Shown: positions 8,201-20,499 of the stretch, in pieces
Position numbering within the stretch: position 1 is the first letter of the stretch
How the letters are laid out: every line of letters starts with the position of its first letter
UHGV virus genome: UHGV-0263856
From: a virus
Strand: one strand, 5' to 3'
DNA: 20,499 nucleotides
Translations under genes and position numbers: made by a program
Notes under the pieces: model-generated
Databases searched by the model: none
Seen by the model: the letters and a program-made list of their open reading frames with translations, nothing else
Told to the model about the DNA's origin: nothing

Positions 8201-9187
8201 TCAGAATGTCAATTTGTTACTGGATTTACCGAATTTGTCAGACATGGCTCCCAGGCCAGCCAGGACATCGACCTGTCGCTGTCGCCCACCTCCGTGAGCG
8301 GCTGGCTGTTGCCAGTAATCTTCGAAGTGACGATCGGGTCCAAAGAACGTCGCAGCCTGCTTCACGAACTGTGTGCCGGTATTTCCTGTAGCACGTACCC
8401 AGGCGGCATACCGCTTCACGCCATCAAGCATGGTCTCCGGTTTTATTCCCTCCCTGATACGGGCTTTCCAGGCTTTGAAGGCCGCTGACTTGGAATTGCC
8501 ACCAGCACGTTTGGGATATTCCTGCCAGGCCTGTTCAAATTCCGGTGAATATTCCTGTCGGGCAGAACGCGCAGACGCGTCAGCGGATGCATCAATAGTG
8601 TTTTTAGTCTCCGTTGTAATCTCTGTAGTAATCTCTGTATTTGTATCAACATTCGGCGTATCCCCTGTTCCGTTATGACGTCGGGGGGTGTTCCGTTTTA
8701 ACGTAATAGCTGTATCGCTGATTGCATTATTGCTGTTACTTTCTGGCGAAACAGAAGAAGGTGTGGTGATGACCGCAATTGCCTGTGGGTTGATCCCGAC
8801 AAACAAAATATTGCTGCATTTCACCCCATCGAGCATTTCCACCGTGCGTAAATCCAGAGTAATAAACCCTGCATCGCGCAGACGCTTCAGCGCATCTGCG
8901 GTTTCCCTTTTCCCGAAACCAAACTGCTCAGCAAACGCCTGGTAGCTTCTTTGCAGTTTGTCGCCCTGAAAACGCTTGCGATATCCCAGCAACGCTCCGG
9001 TGTGCTCATCCCTGACCTCTGTCGGGCGGTACCAGTAAACGATCTCTGAAAGCAGAGCGATAGCCGTCGCATCCGGACGCCCACTGGGTAGTCGAATATA
9101 TTTCCACCAGTTCGCAGGTGTAACATTGCCGGAAATATTAATTTGACCAATAGCCATAACTTCCGGTGTGGGGGCGTAACGGCTCAT
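8201..9187 (-). CDS. Replication initiator (lambda O-like role)
   Basis: 328 aa. Directly upstream of the DnaC/DnaB-like genes, with a mid-gene low-complexity linker (TEITTEITTE, DASADASARSA) that carries iteron-like repeats, as in lambda where ori lies inside O. Confidence 0.55.
   Translation of the reverse strand: MSRYAPTPEVMAIGQINISGNVTPANWWKYIRLPSGRPDATAIALLSEIVYWYRPTEVRDEHTGALLGYRKRFQGDKLQRSYQAFAEQFGFGKRETADALKRLRDAGFITLDLRTVEMLDGVKCSNILFVGINPQAIAVITTPSSVSPESNSNNAISDTAITLKRNTPRRHNGTGDTPNVDTNTEITTEITTETKNTIDASADASARSARQEYSPEFEQAWQEYPKRAGGNSKSAAFKAWKARIREGIKPETMLDGVKRYAAWVRATGNTGTQFVKQAATFFGPDRHFEDYWQQPAAHGGGRQRQVDVLAGLGAMSDKFGKSSNKLTF
8605..8652. repeat. Iteron-like 12-bp direct repeats (candidate ori) inside the initiator gene
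   Basis: tagtctccgttg / taatctctgtag / taatctctgtat / ttgtatcaacat: four adjacent 12-mers, the central two near-perfect. Confidence 0.45.
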
Positions 9188-9483
9188 ACAACCTCCTTCC
9201 GCGGCATGAGAATTGTGTAGCCACGCGCAGGTTGTAGTCTGGCTTTTGCATCAATAGTAAGCGTTGCAATTTTTCGGATATGAAGATAACCAGCTCTTTC
9301 CAGTGCCAGGGTTTCCCTGAATATCGCTTGCTTAGAACAACAGCAGAAATCAGCAAGCACCTGATGATCAATAACTCTCTCGCCTTCACCGTCTGAAGAA
9401 CCCGACATCAAAACACGCAACATAATTAGGCGCTGAATCGGGTTATCGAAAGCACATCCGCACACAAACTGAAAACAGTTCAC
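9184..9483 (-). CDS. Hypothetical HTH protein (cII-position)
   Basis: 99 aa. HQVLADFCCCSKQAIFRETLALERAGYL resembles an HTH. Start and stop each overlap neighbours by 4 nt. Confidence 0.4.
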   Translation of the reverse strand: MNCFQFVCGCAFDNPIQRLIMLRVLMSGSSDGEGERVIDHQVLADFCCCSKQAIFRETLALERAGYLHIRKIATLTIDAKARLQPARGYTILMPRKEVV

Positions 9484-9704
9484 GCCACACCTCCCAGACG
9501 CTTAAACATTTTTCCAGACAGAAATACCGCCAGAGGGTAACTGATGGTGTAGCTACGCCCCTGTAGTTCGCACACGACTTTCTGGCTTTCAGCGTTGACT
9601 AGGCAAACCCGCAGAACGTGACCGTTGCTGGTGGCGAACCACTGCCCCACACGGGGGCAACGGTTGTATCGGTGATACAGGGAATTAACGATGTGGCGGA
9701 TCAT
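9480..9704 (-). CDS. Hypothetical protein
   Basis: 74-aa ORF, translationally coupled (4-nt overlaps) on both sides. Confidence 0.4.
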   Translation of the reverse strand: MIRHIVNSLYHRYNRCPRVGQWFATSNGHVLRVCLVNAESQKVVCELQGRSYTISYPLAVFLSGKMFKRLGGVA

Positions 9705-11783: not shown

Positions 11784-11894
11784 TCTTTAGTCTCACACCA
11801 GATACTTTGTTATCCAACGATGTTAACCACGGGAATCCAAAGTATCAAGAAATTCTGTTACTTTAGTATCAACAGCCATGAGAGGAGAAGAAAA
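11784..11894. promoter_or_regulatory. Divergent immunity control region (OR with PR/PRM candidates)
   Basis: Motif copies at 11803-11811 (reverse orientation), 11840-11848 and 11864-11872. Candidate - strand PR: -35 TTGATA (rc of 11843-11848), 17-nt spacer, -10 TAACAT (rc of 11820-11825). Candidate PRM -10 TAGTAT at 11864-11869. Confidence 0.5.
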
Positions 11895-12551
11895 ATGAAG
11901 TCTTTAGGTGAACGTCTCATCAACGCACGGCAAAAAGCTGGGTTAACACAAGATGCGTTGGCTAAAAAAGCTGGGATCACCAGAGTTGCAATCAGTAAAG
12001 CCGAGCAAGGCCTTACAAAAAGTTTCAACGGTGACACCCTTTTTAAAGTTGCAGCTGCACTGCGGTGTTCACCGCAGTGGCTTCAGAACGGAGATGAAAA
12101 AGATAAGCATTGGGAAAATAATGTTAAGAGCTGCCCACAGAGAGACACAGCACACTCTTACCCTGTAATTAACTGGGTTCAGGCAGGATTATTCGCAACT
12201 TCTGGTGATGACTACAACATGTATGATCAGGATAATTGGAGGCATTCTGTAAAATACGCTGGTGAGAGGGGGTTCTGGCTGGAAGTGCACGGAGACTCAA
12301 TGACTTCGCCCGTAGGAATAACATTTCCTGAAGGAATGTCGATCCTTGTCAACCCAGATAAAGAAGTTTTTTCAGGGTGTTACGTCATCGCCAGAAAAAA
12401 ATCGACCAATGAAGCAACATTCAAAAAATATATTTCTGACATGGGAAAGGCGTTTCTAAAGCCCCTTAATCCACAATATCCAATCATAGAAATGGACAAT
12501 GATTGCGAAATAGTAGGTGTTGTGGTTGATGCCAGGTGGGATATTTTCTGA
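11895..12551 (+). CDS. cI: CI-like prophage repressor (HTH plus S24 LexA-type peptidase domain)
   Basis: AGGAG 8 nt before the ATG at 11895. N-terminal LTQDALAKKAGITRVAISKAEQG (HTH), C-terminal WLEVHGDSMTSP...GCYVIARKK (Ser/Lys autocleavage dyad). Confidence 0.9.
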   Translation: MKSLGERLINARQKAGLTQDALAKKAGITRVAISKAEQGLTKSFNGDTLFKVAAALRCSPQWLQNGDEKDKHWENNVKSCPQRDTAHSYPVINWVQAGLFATSGDDYNMYDQDNWRHSVKYAGERGFWLEVHGDSMTSPVGITFPEGMSILVNPDKEVFSGCYVIARKKSTNEATFKKYISDMGKAFLKPLNPQYPIIEMDNDCEIVGVVVDARWDIF

Positions 12552-15194: not shown

Positions 15195-15462
15195 AATGGG
15201 ACTGAACAGCGATGTCACTGCCGAAGAGGTTTATGACCTGGCTGTACTGGCGCTGAATTTATCAAATATCGCAAACCTGAAGCGATACGAGCTTGATATG
15301 GATGGTTGCGACTCGTGCGGTCAGGATTGTGGCGCAGATATGACTGAAGATCCTGATGGTGATTATGTCCTGTTTGATGACGTGGTTAAGTTGTTTGAAT
15401 TTGATACAACCACTCAAAAGTTAGAAATCCCGGCAAAGGAGGCTGCCAGTGAGCAAGATTGA
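15148..15462 (+). CDS. Hypothetical acidic protein
   Basis: ATG at 15148 with an upstream purine-rich stretch. C-terminus acidic with CDSCGQDCG. Confidence 0.45.
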   Translation: MTITKQRVEKIIYRHEMGLNSDVTAEEVYDLAVLALNLSNIANLKRYELDMDGCDSCGQDCGADMTEDPDGDYVLFDDVVKLFEFDTTTQKLEIPAKEAASEQD

Positions 15463-15631
15463 CTATCAGGCACTGCGCGAGGCGGCGGAACAGGCAACGC
15501 AAGATGAATGGGTAGCATATATTTGCCGGGTCATAACGGCATTTATCCTGCGCGCACGTCTGAGGGTAGGCATTGCGGATACTTTATTGACTGGCCTGGC
15601 GTCTGTCAGGGGCGGGAGAGCATCAACATGA
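15449..15631 (+). CDS. Ea22-like N-terminal module (possibly the 5' part of a frameshifted Ea22-like gene continuing in 15628-16134)
   Basis: AAAGGAGG SD and GTG start. MSKIDYQALREAAEQATQDEW is paralogous to the start of 16131-16616. The rest of the ORF is Arg-rich and looks out of frame. Confidence 0.35.
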   Translation: MSKIDYQALREAAEQATQDEWVAYICRVITAFILRARLRVGIADTLLTGLASVRGGRAST

Positions 15632-16134
15632 GCATCAGAACCTACGCAGTGAATTGCAATGACGCATGGCTAAACACCGAAGGTGATGACATCTCCGGCT
15701 CATACGTTAAGTACAAAGACCATCAGGAAGTGGTTGCCGCTCTTGAGGCCAAGTGCGCGGCGCTGGCAGCGGAGAATGCGGGAATAAAGTCTGCAATTCC
15801 AGAATCACGGGATATTGAGGATGACAATGACAATATGGATGACGTATCTCTCGCGGAAGACTTCGGGTTCAATCATGCAATAGAACGGATGAGGAGACAG
15901 ATACCTGAAACGCCAACCACTGATGCTTTCCTGGCTGAAGTCCGGGCGCAGGGGGTGGACGCTGCTATAGAAGCTGCAAAAAATCTGGTGGCCCAAGAAT
16001 ATGAGTATAAGGATTTCAAAGCGGCGCAGAGTGATTGCTGTATGTACCCTGGTTCAGACCTGGTAGGGAAGGTTGAAATGACTGAGTGGTTAGTTGACTT
16101 TGCTGCCCAGCTTCGCAAAGGAGGCAACCAGTGA
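15628..16134 (+). CDS. Hypothetical protein (Ea22-like body suspected)
   Basis: GGGAGAG SD before the ATG at 15628, which overlaps the preceding stop (ATGA). 169 aa. Confidence 0.55.
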   Translation: MSIRTYAVNCNDAWLNTEGDDISGSYVKYKDHQEVVAALEAKCAALAAENAGIKSAIPESRDIEDDNDNMDDVSLAEDFGFNHAIERMRRQIPETPTTDAFLAEVRAQGVDAAIEAAKNLVAQEYEYKDFKAAQSDCCMYPGSDLVGKVEMTEWLVDFAAQLRKGGNQ

Positions 16135-16616
16135 GCGAAATTAATTACCAGGCACTGCGTGAGGTGGCGGAACGTGCAATTCCAGCAATGGAACGCCTGT
16201 TAATGTTGCCAGCTGATGATGACTTGTTAAGTGAACAGGAACTTAAAGATTACGGTGTGGATATTGATGCGCTCAACGCCTTCAAATTTCTGACCGGACC
16301 AGAAACCGTGCTGGCACTGCTGGATGAACGGGAAAGAAACCTGCAATACATCAAAAGCCGCGATCAGGAGAACGAGGATATTGCGCTAACGGTAGGGAAG
16401 CTGCGCGTTGAGCTTGAAGCAGAAAAACAGCGGGCAAAAGTTCTATTTATGGAAAATGCTCGGCTTAAGTCAGGCATAGCCGGTCTGATACACCTCGGTA
16501 TTCGATATGCAGATGTTGAGGTCATGAAAATTGCTGGAGATGCCCAGCTTTCTACCCCATGCACTGACAGCATCATAAACAGCATTGCAACAGGCATTCG
16601 CATCAAAGGAGAGTGA
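16131..16616 (+). CDS. Ea22-like family protein
   Basis: AAAGGAGG SD and GTG start. N-terminus MSEINYQALREVAERA; coiled-coil-like middle. Confidence 0.5.
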   Translation: MSEINYQALREVAERAIPAMERLLMLPADDDLLSEQELKDYGVDIDALNAFKFLTGPETVLALLDERERNLQYIKSRDQENEDIALTVGKLRVELEAEKQRAKVLFMENARLKSGIAGLIHLGIRYADVEVMKIAGDAQLSTPCTDSIINSIATGIRIKGE

Positions 16617-16617
16617 T

Positions 16618-17133
16618 ATGGCGTTAACACACCACGAACTCTGTCAGATTGCGTACAAGTTCCTTAAGCGCAACGGGTTCAAGGTTTGCTTTCATGACCG
16701 CTTTGTTGCTGTAACCAGTACCGGAGAACAGCCAGATGCTATGGGATTCAGAAATTCAGCATCATGCCTGATAGAGGCGAAGTGTTCTCGTGCTGACTTG
16801 TTGGCAGATAGAAAAAAGCGTTTCCGTAAAAATCCCTCACTTGGCATGGGCGACTGGCGATTCTTTATTAGTGAGCCGGAAATTATTTCAGTTGAGGATT
16901 TACCTCCCGGCTGGGGATTACTTCACGTTGTTAACGGAAGAGTACGGAAAGTACATGGATGGCCCAGGGGTAATTGCTGTTGGGGTAATCCTGACGATAA
17001 GCCATTTACTGGGAATAAGCAGGTTGAATGCGATTACATGTTATCTGCATTAAGGCGCATGGAGTTGAGAGGGCACCTTAATGAAATATATGACGGTGTG
17101 ATTGTTAATAAGAAAGAAGGAAACGCGGCATGA
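16618..17133 (+). CDS. PD-(D/E)xK-type nuclease-fold protein (MmcB-like suspected)
   Basis: AAAGGAGAG SD before the ATG at 16618. Motif GEQPDAMGF...CLIEAKCSRADL fits the PD...(D/E)xK signature. Confidence 0.5.
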   Translation: MALTHHELCQIAYKFLKRNGFKVCFHDRFVAVTSTGEQPDAMGFRNSASCLIEAKCSRADLLADRKKRFRKNPSLGMGDWRFFISEPEIISVEDLPPGWGLLHVVNGRVRKVHGWPRGNCCWGNPDDKPFTGNKQVECDYMLSALRRMELRGHLNEIYDGVIVNKKEGNAA

Positions 17134-17315
17134 TCACTATTACCAAAGGGCGACTGCTGACAATCAAGCAGTGGCGCGAAACATACGGACCGGGTAGCAA
17201 CGTTGTACTGCCAGCAGAAGAAGCGGAAGAACTGGCACGAATTGCACTGGTATCGCTGGAAGCAGAGCCGGTTGTGTTCTGGTTTGAAAAATATCAAGAA
17301 GGGGCTACGGCATGA
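17130..17315 (+). CDS. Hypothetical small protein
   Basis: 61 aa. Shares the [10 protein letters not shown]-encoding 26-bp repeat with the next gene. Confidence 0.45.
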
Positions 17316-17656
17316 CGACTTTTACCAGAGAGCAGTTAATAGCTCACGCAGAGGAGACTATTGAAGCACAGAGACTGTGCATACCGGGTACAATCGACCA
17401 TGACATCATCCGCACATATAAGATGGATATTGCTGTTCTGGAAATCGCACTGGTATCGCTGGCAGCAGAGCCAGCCGGTAAATTGCATGAATACAAACCA
17501 GTGGGATATCAGCGTCTGGTCGATGAGTTAACCATGCTGGTAAAGCAGTTAACCTGGCAACTGAGGAAAGCGAAGCCAGACTGCAAATTACCGGATAAGG
17601 CGATGAGTTATCTGGAGCGGAACGGACTGATAAGCGTGGAGGATATTTTACGATGA
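17312..17656 (+). CDS. Hypothetical protein
   Basis: 114 aa. 4-nt start/stop overlaps with neighbours. Confidence 0.5.
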
Positions 17657-18141: not shown

Positions 18142-18378
18142 ATGGGCAATGTGATTCAACTGGCTCCCAATGAATGGGTTTGTGAAAGCGTTCTTATCGC
18201 AATTACCGGGCTCAAACCAGGCACAATTCTTCGGGCCCGGAAAGAATGCTGGATGGTTGGAAGAGAGTATATTCACGTATCACCAGACGGTAATCCAAAG
18301 CCTTCCAGTGAATGTATGTATAACAGAAAAGCAATAGATGCCTGGGTCGCCTCAATGAAAAACAAACAACCCAGGTGA
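18142..18378 (+). CDS. xis: Excisionase (Xis-like)
   Basis: 78 aa immediately upstream of int. RARKECWMVGREYIHVS resembles lambda Xis (RRWVRECRIF...GREYLFHES). Confidence 0.6.
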   Translation: MGNVIQLAPNEWVCESVLIAITGLKPGTILRARKECWMVGREYIHVSPDGNPKPSSECMYNRKAIDAWVASMKNKQPR

Positions 18379-18433: not shown

Positions 18434-19747
18434 ATGGATAAAGTCAAATATCCAACAGGCGTCGAAAACCACGGCGGCACATTACGCATCTGGTTTAATT
18501 TTAAAGGTAAACGTGTCAGGGAAAATCTTGGTGTCCCTGACACTGCCAAGAACAGGAAGATCGCCGGGGAACTGCGGACATCAGTATGTTTTGCCATCCG
18601 CACAGGAAGCTTTGATTATGCTGCACAGTTCCCTGACTCCCCCAACCTTCAGGCTTTTGGGGTAAGTAAAAAAGAAATTACGGTGAAGGAACTTGAAGAA
18701 AAGTGGCTGGATCTGAAACGAATGGAAATCTCTGCAAATGCATTCAATCGCTATGAATCCGTTGCAAGAACGATGGTTCCGAAAATTGGAGGCAGTAGAC
18801 TGGTGTCATCGGTAACCAAAGAGGAATTGCTGTATATCAGGAAAGATTTGCTTACCGGGTATCAGAATTCAACGAAAAACAAAGCAGCAGCAAAAGGACG
18901 GAGCGTCGTTACTGTAAATTATTACATGACGACAATCGCTGGAATGTTTCAGTTTGCTGCAGATCACGGTTACTTAGAAGCAAATCCCTTCCAGGGAATT
19001 AAGCCTCTTAAAAGAGCCAGGGCAGAGCCAGATCCGCTAACTCGTGACGAATTTATTCGCCTGATAGATGCTTGCCGACATCAGCAGACGAAAAACCTGT
19101 GGTCATTGGCTGTGTACACAGGAATGCGTCACGGTGAACTGGTCTCCCTGGCCTGGGAAGATATCGATCTGAAGGCAGGAACAATTACCATCAGGCGCAA
19201 TTATACGAAACTTGGTGAGTTCACTCTACCGAAAACTGAAGCAAGCACAAACAGGGTTGTGCACCTTATCCAGCCCGCTATCAGTGTCCTGAAAAATCAG
19301 GCTGAAATGACAAGACTGGGTAAGCAGTACAACATCAAGGTGCAACTACGTGAATATGGACGTTCAGTGAACCATGAATGTACTTTCGTGTTTAACCCTC
19401 AAGTGGTTAGAAAAAGCGAACAGGTAGGTTTTGTCTACAAAGTCGATTCTGTAGGTGACTCATGGGAAACAGCCATTAAGCGTGCAGGGATCAGGCATCG
19501 AAAGGCATACCAGTCACGACACACTTATGCGTGCTGGTCATTATCTGCCGGAGCAAACCCAAGCTTCATTGCCAGCCAGATGGGCCATGCAAGTGCCCAG
19601 ATGGTATTCAATGTATACGGAGCATGGATGACTGACAGCAATGCAGAACAGATCGCAATGCTGAATCAGAAGCTGACAGATTATGTCCCAATGATGCCCC
19701 ATAGTCACCAAAGTGACACCAGAGGCTTATTAAAATCAGTAAGTTAA
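18434..19747 (+). CDS. int: Tyrosine-type site-specific integrase
   Basis: 437 aa. GGAGG SD. C-terminal catalytic region TGMRHGEL...SRHTYACW...GHAS...VYGAWM (R, HxxR, Y). Confidence 0.9.
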   Translation: MDKVKYPTGVENHGGTLRIWFNFKGKRVRENLGVPDTAKNRKIAGELRTSVCFAIRTGSFDYAAQFPDSPNLQAFGVSKKEITVKELEEKWLDLKRMEISANAFNRYESVARTMVPKIGGSRLVSSVTKEELLYIRKDLLTGYQNSTKNKAAAKGRSVVTVNYYMTTIAGMFQFAADHGYLEANPFQGIKPLKRARAEPDPLTRDEFIRLIDACRHQQTKNLWSLAVYTGMRHGELVSLAWEDIDLKAGTITIRRNYTKLGEFTLPKTEASTNRVVHLIQPAISVLKNQAEMTRLGKQYNIKVQLREYGRSVNHECTFVFNPQVVRKSEQVGFVYKVDSVGDSWETAIKRAGIRHRKAYQSRHTYACWSLSAGANPSFIASQMGHASAQMVFNVYGAWMTDSNAEQIAMLNQKLTDYVPMMPHSHQSDTRGLLKSVS

Positions 19748-19775
19748 TCCTTAATACCCGTCATGTTAACTGCGT
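19745..19775. other. Prophage-host junction (int-proximal att site) within the yecE-like reading frame
   Basis: The int stop is at 19745-19747. The yecE-like frame is open from 19717 and reads ...RHVNCVEGNTT across the junction. The exact core cannot be defined because the other prophage end is outside the window. Confidence 0.4.
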
Positions 19776-20499
19776 GGAGGGTAACACCACGCTTTATGCC
19801 CTGCCGAAACCCGAGGTTGTCCTGCGCTGGCGTGAGCAGACCACAGATGACTTCCGCTTCTGTTTTAAGTTTCCGGCGACCATTTCGCATCAGGCAGCAT
19901 TACGGCATTGCGATGATTTAGTGACTGAATTTTTGACCCGCATGTCACCGTTGGCTCCGCGCATTGGACAATACTGGCTGCAACTGCCTGCCACATTCGG
20001 CCCACGGGAGCTGCCTGCGCTTTGGCATTTTCTCGATTCTCTTCCCGGTGAATTTAATTATGGGGTGGAAGTCCGCCATCCACAGTTTTTCGCCAAAGGG
20101 GAAGAGGAACAAACGCTTAATCGCGGTTTACATCAGCGCGGCGTTAATCGGGTGATTTTAGACAGCCGCCCGGTTCATGCAGCACGTCCACACAGTGAAG
20201 CTATTCGCGACGCTCAACGAAAAAAACCTAAAGTTCCGGTACATGCTGTACTGACGGCGAAAAATCCACTGATCCGTTTTATCGGTAGTGATGATATGAC
20301 GCAAAACCGGGAGTTATTTCAGGTCTGGTTACAAAAATTAGCACAGTGGCATCAGACCACTACGCCTTATCTTTTTTTACATACGCCAGATATTGCCCAG
20401 GCCCCGGAACTGGTACATACCCTGTGGGAAGACTTACGTAAAACGCTTCCAGAGATCGGAGCAGTTCCGGCTATTCCACAGCAATCTTCTCTTTTCTGA
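19774..20499 (+). CDS. yecE: YecE-like DUF72 protein, 5' end displaced by the prophage
   Basis: 241-aa ORF running to the window end. The upstream frame has no ATG between the stop at 19714 and GTG 19774. Identification as yecE is from memory of the protein and of yecE as a known Stx-phage integration site. Confidence 0.55.
   Translation: MEGNTTLYALPKPEVVLRWREQTTDDFRFCFKFPATISHQAALRHCDDLVTEFLTRMSPLAPRIGQYWLQLPATFGPRELPALWHFLDSLPGEFNYGVEVRHPQFFAKGEEEQTLNRGLHQRGVNRVILDSRPVHAARPHSEAIRDAQRKKPKVPVHAVLTAKNPLIRFIGSDDMTQNRELFQVWLQKLAQWHQTTTPYLFLHTPDIAQAPELVHTLWEDLRKTLPEIGAVPAIPQQSSLF

Follow-up and report, generated by a model that had tools for sequence, protein, structure and literature searches.

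The MmcB-like proteins (PF06319/DUF1052/COG5321) are a chromosomal, mostly alphaproteobacterial family, which published work on DUF1052 has assigned to the PD-(D/E)XK superfamily, close to the junction resolvases of Archaea (PMC1189080, PMC3424549). In Caulobacter, MmcB is an SOS-regulated PD-(D/E)XK endonuclease that gives resistance to mitomycin C and cisplatin, and it has been hypothesized to act in the repair of interstrand cross-links (PMC9578287). Here we describe a gene in the virus genome UHGV-0263856, a stretch of 20,499 nucleotides (the window) that comprises the early region and the right end of an Escherichia coli lambdoid prophage inserted at yecE (DUF72). The gene, an intact open reading frame (ORF) of 171 codons plus stop on the plus strand (16618-17133), encodes a stand-alone single-domain protein. 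The nearest characterized relatives of this protein are the MmcB-like proteins, and from its sequence and modelled structure we predict, with high confidence, that it is an active PD-(D/E)xK nuclease of the MmcB lineage.

Catalytic motif, predicted fold and relationship to MmcB

The protein carries the motif G36-E37-Q38-P39-D40-A-M-G-F ... C50-L-I-E53-A-K55, encoded by nucleotides 16723-16782, and reads TG-E37-Q-P-D40-AMGF...CLI-E53-A-K55-CSRADLLADRKKRFR across this region; the E37 codon lies at 16726-16728, those of P39-D40 at 16732-16737 and those of E53-x-K55 at 16774-16782. An earlier reading of the sequence without database searches (the sequence-only reading) had fitted GEQPD...IEAK to the PD-(D/E)xK signature, with the caveat that poor conservation of these residues among homologues would speak against it. 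Conservation is instead at least 98.5%: among 334 homologues that are 34-100% identical to the window protein, D40 is retained in 331 and E37, E53 and K55 in 329 each. All four residues are invariant in 34 Enterobacterales homologues, and each is found in 139-140 of the 141 homologues with less than 50% identity. A set of 38 distant homologues, with identities of 34-57%, retains D40 throughout, and each of E37, E53 and K55 is kept in at least 90% of them. One family member, P0152, has His and Val in place of E53 and K55 and may be inactive.

The conservation extends beyond the catalytic core. Homologue alignments reveal a signature in the second helix, S57-R58-x-D60-(F/L)-x-x-D64-x-x-K67-x-x-R70 (codons 16786-16827), in which S57, R58, D60 and D64 are each shared by 305-330 of the 334 homologues. 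The near-invariant positions outside the four motif residues are H5, D/E27, R58, D60, D64, K67, R70, G78, R81, W99-G-L, E137 and R146-R147. Position 27 (codon 16696-16698), which follows the first strand, is Asp in 234 and Glu in 94 of the homologues, and this acidic residue is a candidate additional metal ligand.

A structure of the protein was predicted with AlphaFold2 from a 34-sequence alignment, giving a mean predicted local distance difference test score (pLDDT) of 85.6 and a predicted template-modelling score (pTM) of 0.80. The model opens with a helix (residues 5-18), followed by strands at 23-25, 41-45 and 48-54, a second helix (58-64) and a strand at 80-85, beyond which lie two more strands and C-terminal helices. 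This contains the alpha-beta-beta-beta-alpha-beta core of the PD-(D/E)xK superfamily, with D40 opening the second strand, just before residue 41, and E53-x-K55 closing the third, which is the classical arrangement; the nuclease fold proposed in the sequence-only reading is thus recovered in the model. A Foldseek search of the PDB with the model returned a sole significant match, 3dnx (E-value 6.4e-6, TM-scores 0.57/0.65), and its matches among viral structure models include several that bear the name 'MmcB-like' or 'MmcB family' DNA repair protein. A single-sequence search of the PDB with the window protein gave only noise (E>0.2).

The protein 3dnx (SPO1766) is itself MmcB-like, as a fragment of 98 amino acids scores 112.9 bits on PF06319. 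A profile built from distant family members matches its sequence with an E-value of 3.2e-5, with the PD, ECK and SRxDFxxD elements aligned. Alignment of the family with 21 PF06319 proteins in hhalign gave a probability of 98.2% and an E-value of 3.1e-14 over 98 columns, which supports what had been a guess in the sequence-only reading, that the protein is MmcB-like. D40, E53 and K55 align to D39, E53 and K55 of the MmcB proteins, and the family signature ECKxSRxDFxxD is found after the third strand, where IEAKCSRADLLAD aligns onto IECKSSRADFQAD. Weak matches to PF06319 were also observed for 11 of 43 family members, with P0265 alone passing the cut-off at 23.1 bits. No Pfam, NCBIfam or PADLOC model matches the window protein, and for this reason we read it as a divergent, uncurated branch: by sequence comparison it is homologous to the MmcB-like proteins and lies outside the curated family, on mobile elements. 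Among phage protein families, the window protein is a clear member of phrog_9263 (E-value 1e-120) and phrog_631 (E-value 1.5e-93), and it matches phrog_5429, a 'DNA repair protein', weakly. The first two groups, in which this sequence family was already catalogued, have no functional annotation and record neither the MmcB-like relationship nor the link to plasmid leading regions.

The window protein and the MmcB proteins share D40, E53, K55 and SRxDFxxD, and differ in several other respects. Where the window family conserves E37, MmcB proteins have Leu; the KxFRxxPxxGMG segment, which follows the second helix and continues to G78, is seven residues longer in the window family in the hhalign alignment; and the C-terminal third is different and was not aligned. 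While the MmcB proteins are chromosomal and mostly alphaproteobacterial (PMC3424549), members of the branch described here reside on phages and plasmids, for the most part from Gammaproteobacteria. The archaeal Hjc/Hje resolvases (PF01870) are also minimal PD-(D/E)xK domains of similar size, and the link between DUF1052 and these enzymes at the profile level is a historical one (PMC1189080). Weak matches to the Hjc profile were found for 23 of the 43 family members, none of them reaching the Pfam threshold (21.1 bits), and there was no close structural match. Type II restriction endonucleases and CARF-associated nucleases (SdaI, NgoMIV, Can2/Card1) differ in having recognition or sensor domains or a methyltransferase partner, which the window protein lacks; it also matches no defence-system model.

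Rare fusions were observed in the family, namely a TniB-like ATPase with the nuclease (P0137), the nuclease with a dATP/dGTP pyrophosphohydrolase (P0215) and an Ea22 N-terminus with the nuclease (P0122). These may be read-throughs of gene calling and were not used for functional inference.

Distribution across phages and plasmids

Close DNA copies of the gene are present in 928 of 5,426 complete E. coli genomes, and 248 of the 1,297 places where they occur are on plasmids. An exhaustive search with a profile hidden Markov model retrieved 3,236 protein clusters (at 50% identity) with E-values of at most 1e-3, of which 2,434 had E-values of at most 1e-10; the named relatives are all labelled 'hypothetical protein'.

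Among phages, 642 records match. Copies that are 95-100% identical occur in the Shiga toxin (Stx) phages Stx1 and Stx2 of enterohaemorrhagic E. coli and O104:H4, and the family is also carried by temperate phages of Klebsiella. In MAR10-like phages of Vibrio, a 52%-identical homologue follows the genes for the polymerase, primase/helicase and SNF2 helicase, and in the Ackermannviridae, such as Vi01, the homologue abuts the gp61 primase gene directly upstream. Two more distant prophages also carry a homologue: that of Microbulbifer lies in a nin-like region beside YbcO, and that of Kushneria follows RdgC in the vicinity of xis and int.

The 864 matching plasmid records include 411 from conjugative plasmids. 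The IncI2 CTX-M-15 plasmid pHNY2 holds an identical copy about 3 kb from mobC and the relaxase gene. In the leading regions of IncF plasmids a 67%-identical homologue of 172 amino acids, WP_001178556.1, is encoded directly after psiB-psiA and before hok; this protein is plasmid-only and is found in 176 of the 5,426 E. coli genomes. On plasmid p948 of the enterotoxigenic E. coli strain H10407 its gene (9001-9519 of locus L008) starts at the last base of psiA. A conjugative plasmid of Pseudomonas has the homologue between rdgC/methyltransferase and ssb, and one of Acinetobacter has it between transfer genes and a Dam methylase gene; toxin-antitoxin genes are also among the neighbours on these plasmids. 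RdgC is encoded upstream of the homologue, no more than a few genes away, in the Kushneria prophage (L003, 4847-7492) and the Pseudomonas aeruginosa conjugative plasmid (L012, 2223-6663), which are unrelated elements.

No neighbour is common to the phage and plasmid contexts that we examined, and there is no conserved partner such as a methyltransferase, sensor or immunity gene. The contexts have in common the kind of neighbourhood, early-expressed and concerned with DNA metabolism, rather than any constant neighbour. These contexts fit DNA repair, recombination, or the 'establishment' of incoming DNA.

The nuclease gene and its prophage

The nuclease ORF begins with ATG at 16618 and ends with TGA at 17131-17133. 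A Shine-Dalgarno sequence, AAGGAG (16606-16611), lies six nucleotides upstream of the ATG, inside the end of the preceding Ead/Ea22-like ORF (plus strand, 16131-16616; Pfam PF13935, E-value 4e-31), whose stop codon (16614-16616) is separated from the ATG by a single nucleotide. At the other end, the nuclease stop overlaps the ATG of the next ORF in ATGA (17130-17133). Given this overlap and the placement of the ribosome-binding site, the gene is probably translationally coupled to both neighbours, tightly packed in a long co-directional operon. A mechanical ORF list offers an alternative TTG start at 16585; the ATG is preferred because the N-termini of the homologues align to it. The GC content of the gene, about 47%, is the same as that of its neighbours, so the gene is not compositionally distinct from them, and a scan for promoters and terminators around it found promoter-like sites at chance level and nothing that sets it apart. 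Comparison with the allele of an Stx2a phage gave a ratio of nonsynonymous to synonymous substitution rates (dN/dS) of 0.22, and the copy in a Klebsiella phage encodes a protein that is 90% identical while its DNA is only 77% identical. Purifying selection on the gene is evident.

In spite of this, NCBI's pipeline mis-annotates the intact gene, often as a pseudogene or a shortened ORF. DNA identical to that of the window is recorded in RefSeq as a 'frameshifted' pseudogene of 179 nucleotides in two chromosomes (L001, 17001-17179; L011, 16402-16580), and in pHNY2 as a shortened coding sequence of 111 amino acids that omits the catalytic core (L007, 6181-6516); on a 95-kb plasmid (L009, 4438-4950) it has no coding sequence in the incomplete gene table of PLSDB. 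These mis-calls, together with the lack of a Pfam, NCBIfam or PADLOC model, make the gene invisible in most annotations. PHROG 16308 (58 amino acids) and the protein cluster P0052 (111 amino acids, 645 members) appear to stem from partial gene calls, and a modelling paper on the exo-xis region mentions no nuclease there (PMC8614690).

The plus-strand accessory genes of the prophage run through DUF4752, two Ead/Ea22-like genes, the nuclease gene and DUF4222, and the minus strand of the window holds genes for Q, RusA, a DnaB-like helicase and Rha. The prophage end that adjoins yecE carries the excisionase gene xis (18142-18378) and the tyrosine integrase gene int (18434-19747), both on the plus strand, in agreement with the integrase-proximal location given in the sequence-only reading. 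That reading had also called the neighbours unassigned; they have no known function, but family names exist for them (Ead/Ea22, DUF4752, DUF4222). A CI-like repressor gene of the LexA/S24 family (11820-12551, plus strand; 'LexA family protein' in RefSeq) is co-directional with the leftward early operon that holds the nuclease gene.

Several other features of the window were observed. The two short plus-strand ORFs downstream of the nuclease gene, of 61 and 114 amino acids (17130-17656), correspond to different pieces of modular phage proteins of greater length (phrog_60/660); related prophages have a single gene of 190-252 amino acids in this place, annotated as DUF551 or 'phage protein', and RefSeq marks one piece of the pair as incomplete. 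The first of the tandem Ead/Ea22-like genes (15449-16134) looks frameshifted, and its RefSeq equivalent is labelled 'frameshifted': an ORF of 60 amino acids starting MSKIDYQALREAAE... is similar to the N-terminal part of the paralogue that is encoded intact at 16131-16616, and an ORF of 208 amino acids, which overlaps the shorter one, bears the remainder of the gene. Near the start of the window, three tRNA genes (Arg-tct, Arg-tcg and one with a CAT anticodon; 378-627) adjoin a DNA methyltransferase gene on the minus strand (677-1726); the CAT-anticodon tRNA is assigned to Met by ARAGORN and to Ile by RefSeq. The integrase ORF overlaps the annotated start of yecE (region 19729-20499); the prophage sits at the 5' end of this gene and may supply its first codons.

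Proposed role and competing explanations

We propose that the window protein is a Mg2+-dependent endonuclease, in which D40 and E53 would serve as metal ligands, perhaps joined by D27 or E37, while K55 would orient the water for attack and the conserved basic residues R58, K67, R70, R81, R146 and R147 would hold the DNA. Most likely it would recognize DNA not by sequence but by structure or lesion, for instance a branch, a stalled fork or a cross-link, as has been proposed for MmcB. This follows from the company the gene keeps: it has no methyltransferase, inhibitor or fixed partner and is yet tolerated on temperate phages and conjugative plasmids, where a nuclease without protection would not be tolerated if it were sequence-specific, or sequence-independent and unregulated. 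By the same token, a 'takeover' nuclease that degrades host DNA was rejected, since temperate phages and conjugative plasmids must keep their host alive.

The protein would be made in a short early burst. In the window prophage the gene would be silent in the lysogen and switched on, with the leftward early operon to which it belongs, when SOS induction leads to cleavage of the LexA-like repressor, as would be expected of a gene co-directional with a LexA/S24-family repressor; this cleavage would coincide with damage to the prophage DNA. On IncF plasmids the nuclease would be made together with the products of psiB-psiA as the leading region enters the recipient. In each case it might repair or process the element's own DNA while this is damaged, single-stranded, or starting replication or recombination. 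The explanation as a whole, an early-made, structure- or lesion-specific endonuclease of the MmcB lineage that serves the DNA of its own element, seems to us about evenly balanced between right and wrong, and a role in repair or processing, taken separately, stands at or slightly below that level. The fold and motif, the function of MmcB, the early DNA-metabolism contexts, the absence of a conserved partner and the purifying selection all speak for it.

A number of observations weigh against this explanation. The function of MmcB is itself only partly defined, and MmcB is a chromosomal protein of Alphaproteobacteria. A Pfam search of the window protein at E-values up to 10 gave zero matches, with PF06319 below its gathering threshold of 22 bits. 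Since MmcB proteins do not share E37, the KxFRxxPxxGMG segment or the C-terminal third, the substrate specificity may differ. RusA is already encoded by the prophage, and a junction-processing role would thus be partly redundant. A search for LexA boxes found none in the window, and SOS control of the nuclease would act through the LexA-family phage repressor. Finally, the plasmid contexts are of the 'anti-defence island' type (Samuel et al. 2024, PMC11541004) and suit a role in anti-defence equally well.

Such a role is an alternative that we regard as unlikely, though less so than the others: made first on entry, the protein would destroy or process a nucleic-acid part of host immunity, or help to repair breaks made by restriction or CRISPR systems, and so shield the incoming DNA. 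The homologue that is co-directional with psiB-psiA and abuts it in the IncF leading region is in favour of this, as are the methyltransferase, ssb and toxin-antitoxin genes near the copies on the Pseudomonas and Acinetobacter conjugative plasmids, the 411 conjugative records among the 864 plasmid matches and the place of the window gene in the early accessory part of the prophage. Anti-defence genes are over-represented in leading regions, where one in three of the prevalent families is uncharacterized (PMC11541004). However, no known anti-defence protein was found to resemble the window protein, and the supplements to PMC11541004 contain neither MmcB, DUF1052 nor Hjc; the copies in lytic phages sit inside replication modules beside primase and helicase genes and not in obvious counter-defence islands, and the closest characterized relative is a repair enzyme. 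A broader version has the protein as a 'first-minutes' nuclease common to temperate and virulent phages and conjugative plasmids, an enzyme of establishment or counter-defence, co-transcribed with psiB-psiA on IncF plasmids, that would act on the DNA of the entering element or on host immune nucleic acid with an activity unlike MmcB-type cross-link repair; we consider this improbable. Similarly doubtful is a role like that of archaeal Hjc or T7 endonuclease I, with the protein acting as a debranching enzyme or Holliday-junction resolvase on recombination or replication intermediates before packaging or segregation. Some of the contexts and the weak Hjc matches agree with it, but these matches stay below threshold and reflect a likeness of the superfamily in general, the window prophage and its O104:H4 relative already encode RusA, and a plasmid leading region is not where a resolvase would be expected.

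An effector of defence or superinfection exclusion, or an orphan restriction endonuclease, directed against competing phages or plasmids is very unlikely. The window protein has no PADLOC match even at an E-value of 10, and in none of the contexts examined does its gene adjoin one for a methyltransferase, sensor or immunity protein. A lysogen would keep the gene repressed along with the rest of the early-left operon, and copies are present in virulent phages and plasmid leading regions. The suggestion of NCBI's pipeline that this is a decayed gene draws on the RefSeq records in which identical DNA is given as a 179-nucleotide 'frameshifted' pseudogene or an internal ORF of 111 amino acids. Against this, the 171-amino acid frame is collinear, with no frameshift, with full-length homologues from many genera, its catalytic residues are intact, and both the dN/dS of 0.22 and the excess of protein over DNA identity point to purifying selection; we find decay scarcely credible and rejected this reading on the collinearity and the selection.

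The fold and superfamily of the MmcB-lineage nuclease are already well known, and the finding is a useful lead rather than a surprise of principle. What is new is a statistically supported link between the MmcB lineage and a very widespread family of phage and plasmid genes that has no curated model and is often mis-called by standard annotation, together with the finding that mobile elements of very different kinds hold these genes in 'early' positions, among them the one directly after psiBA. The link to MmcB provides a concrete hypothesis that can be tested cheaply. Stx prophages are induced by mitomycin C and other DNA-damaging agents, and an MmcB-like nuclease made right after induction could therefore affect the rescue of damaged prophages and the yield of phage and toxin. 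On plasmids, the nuclease could be an uncharacterized leading-region function that influences the success of transfer.
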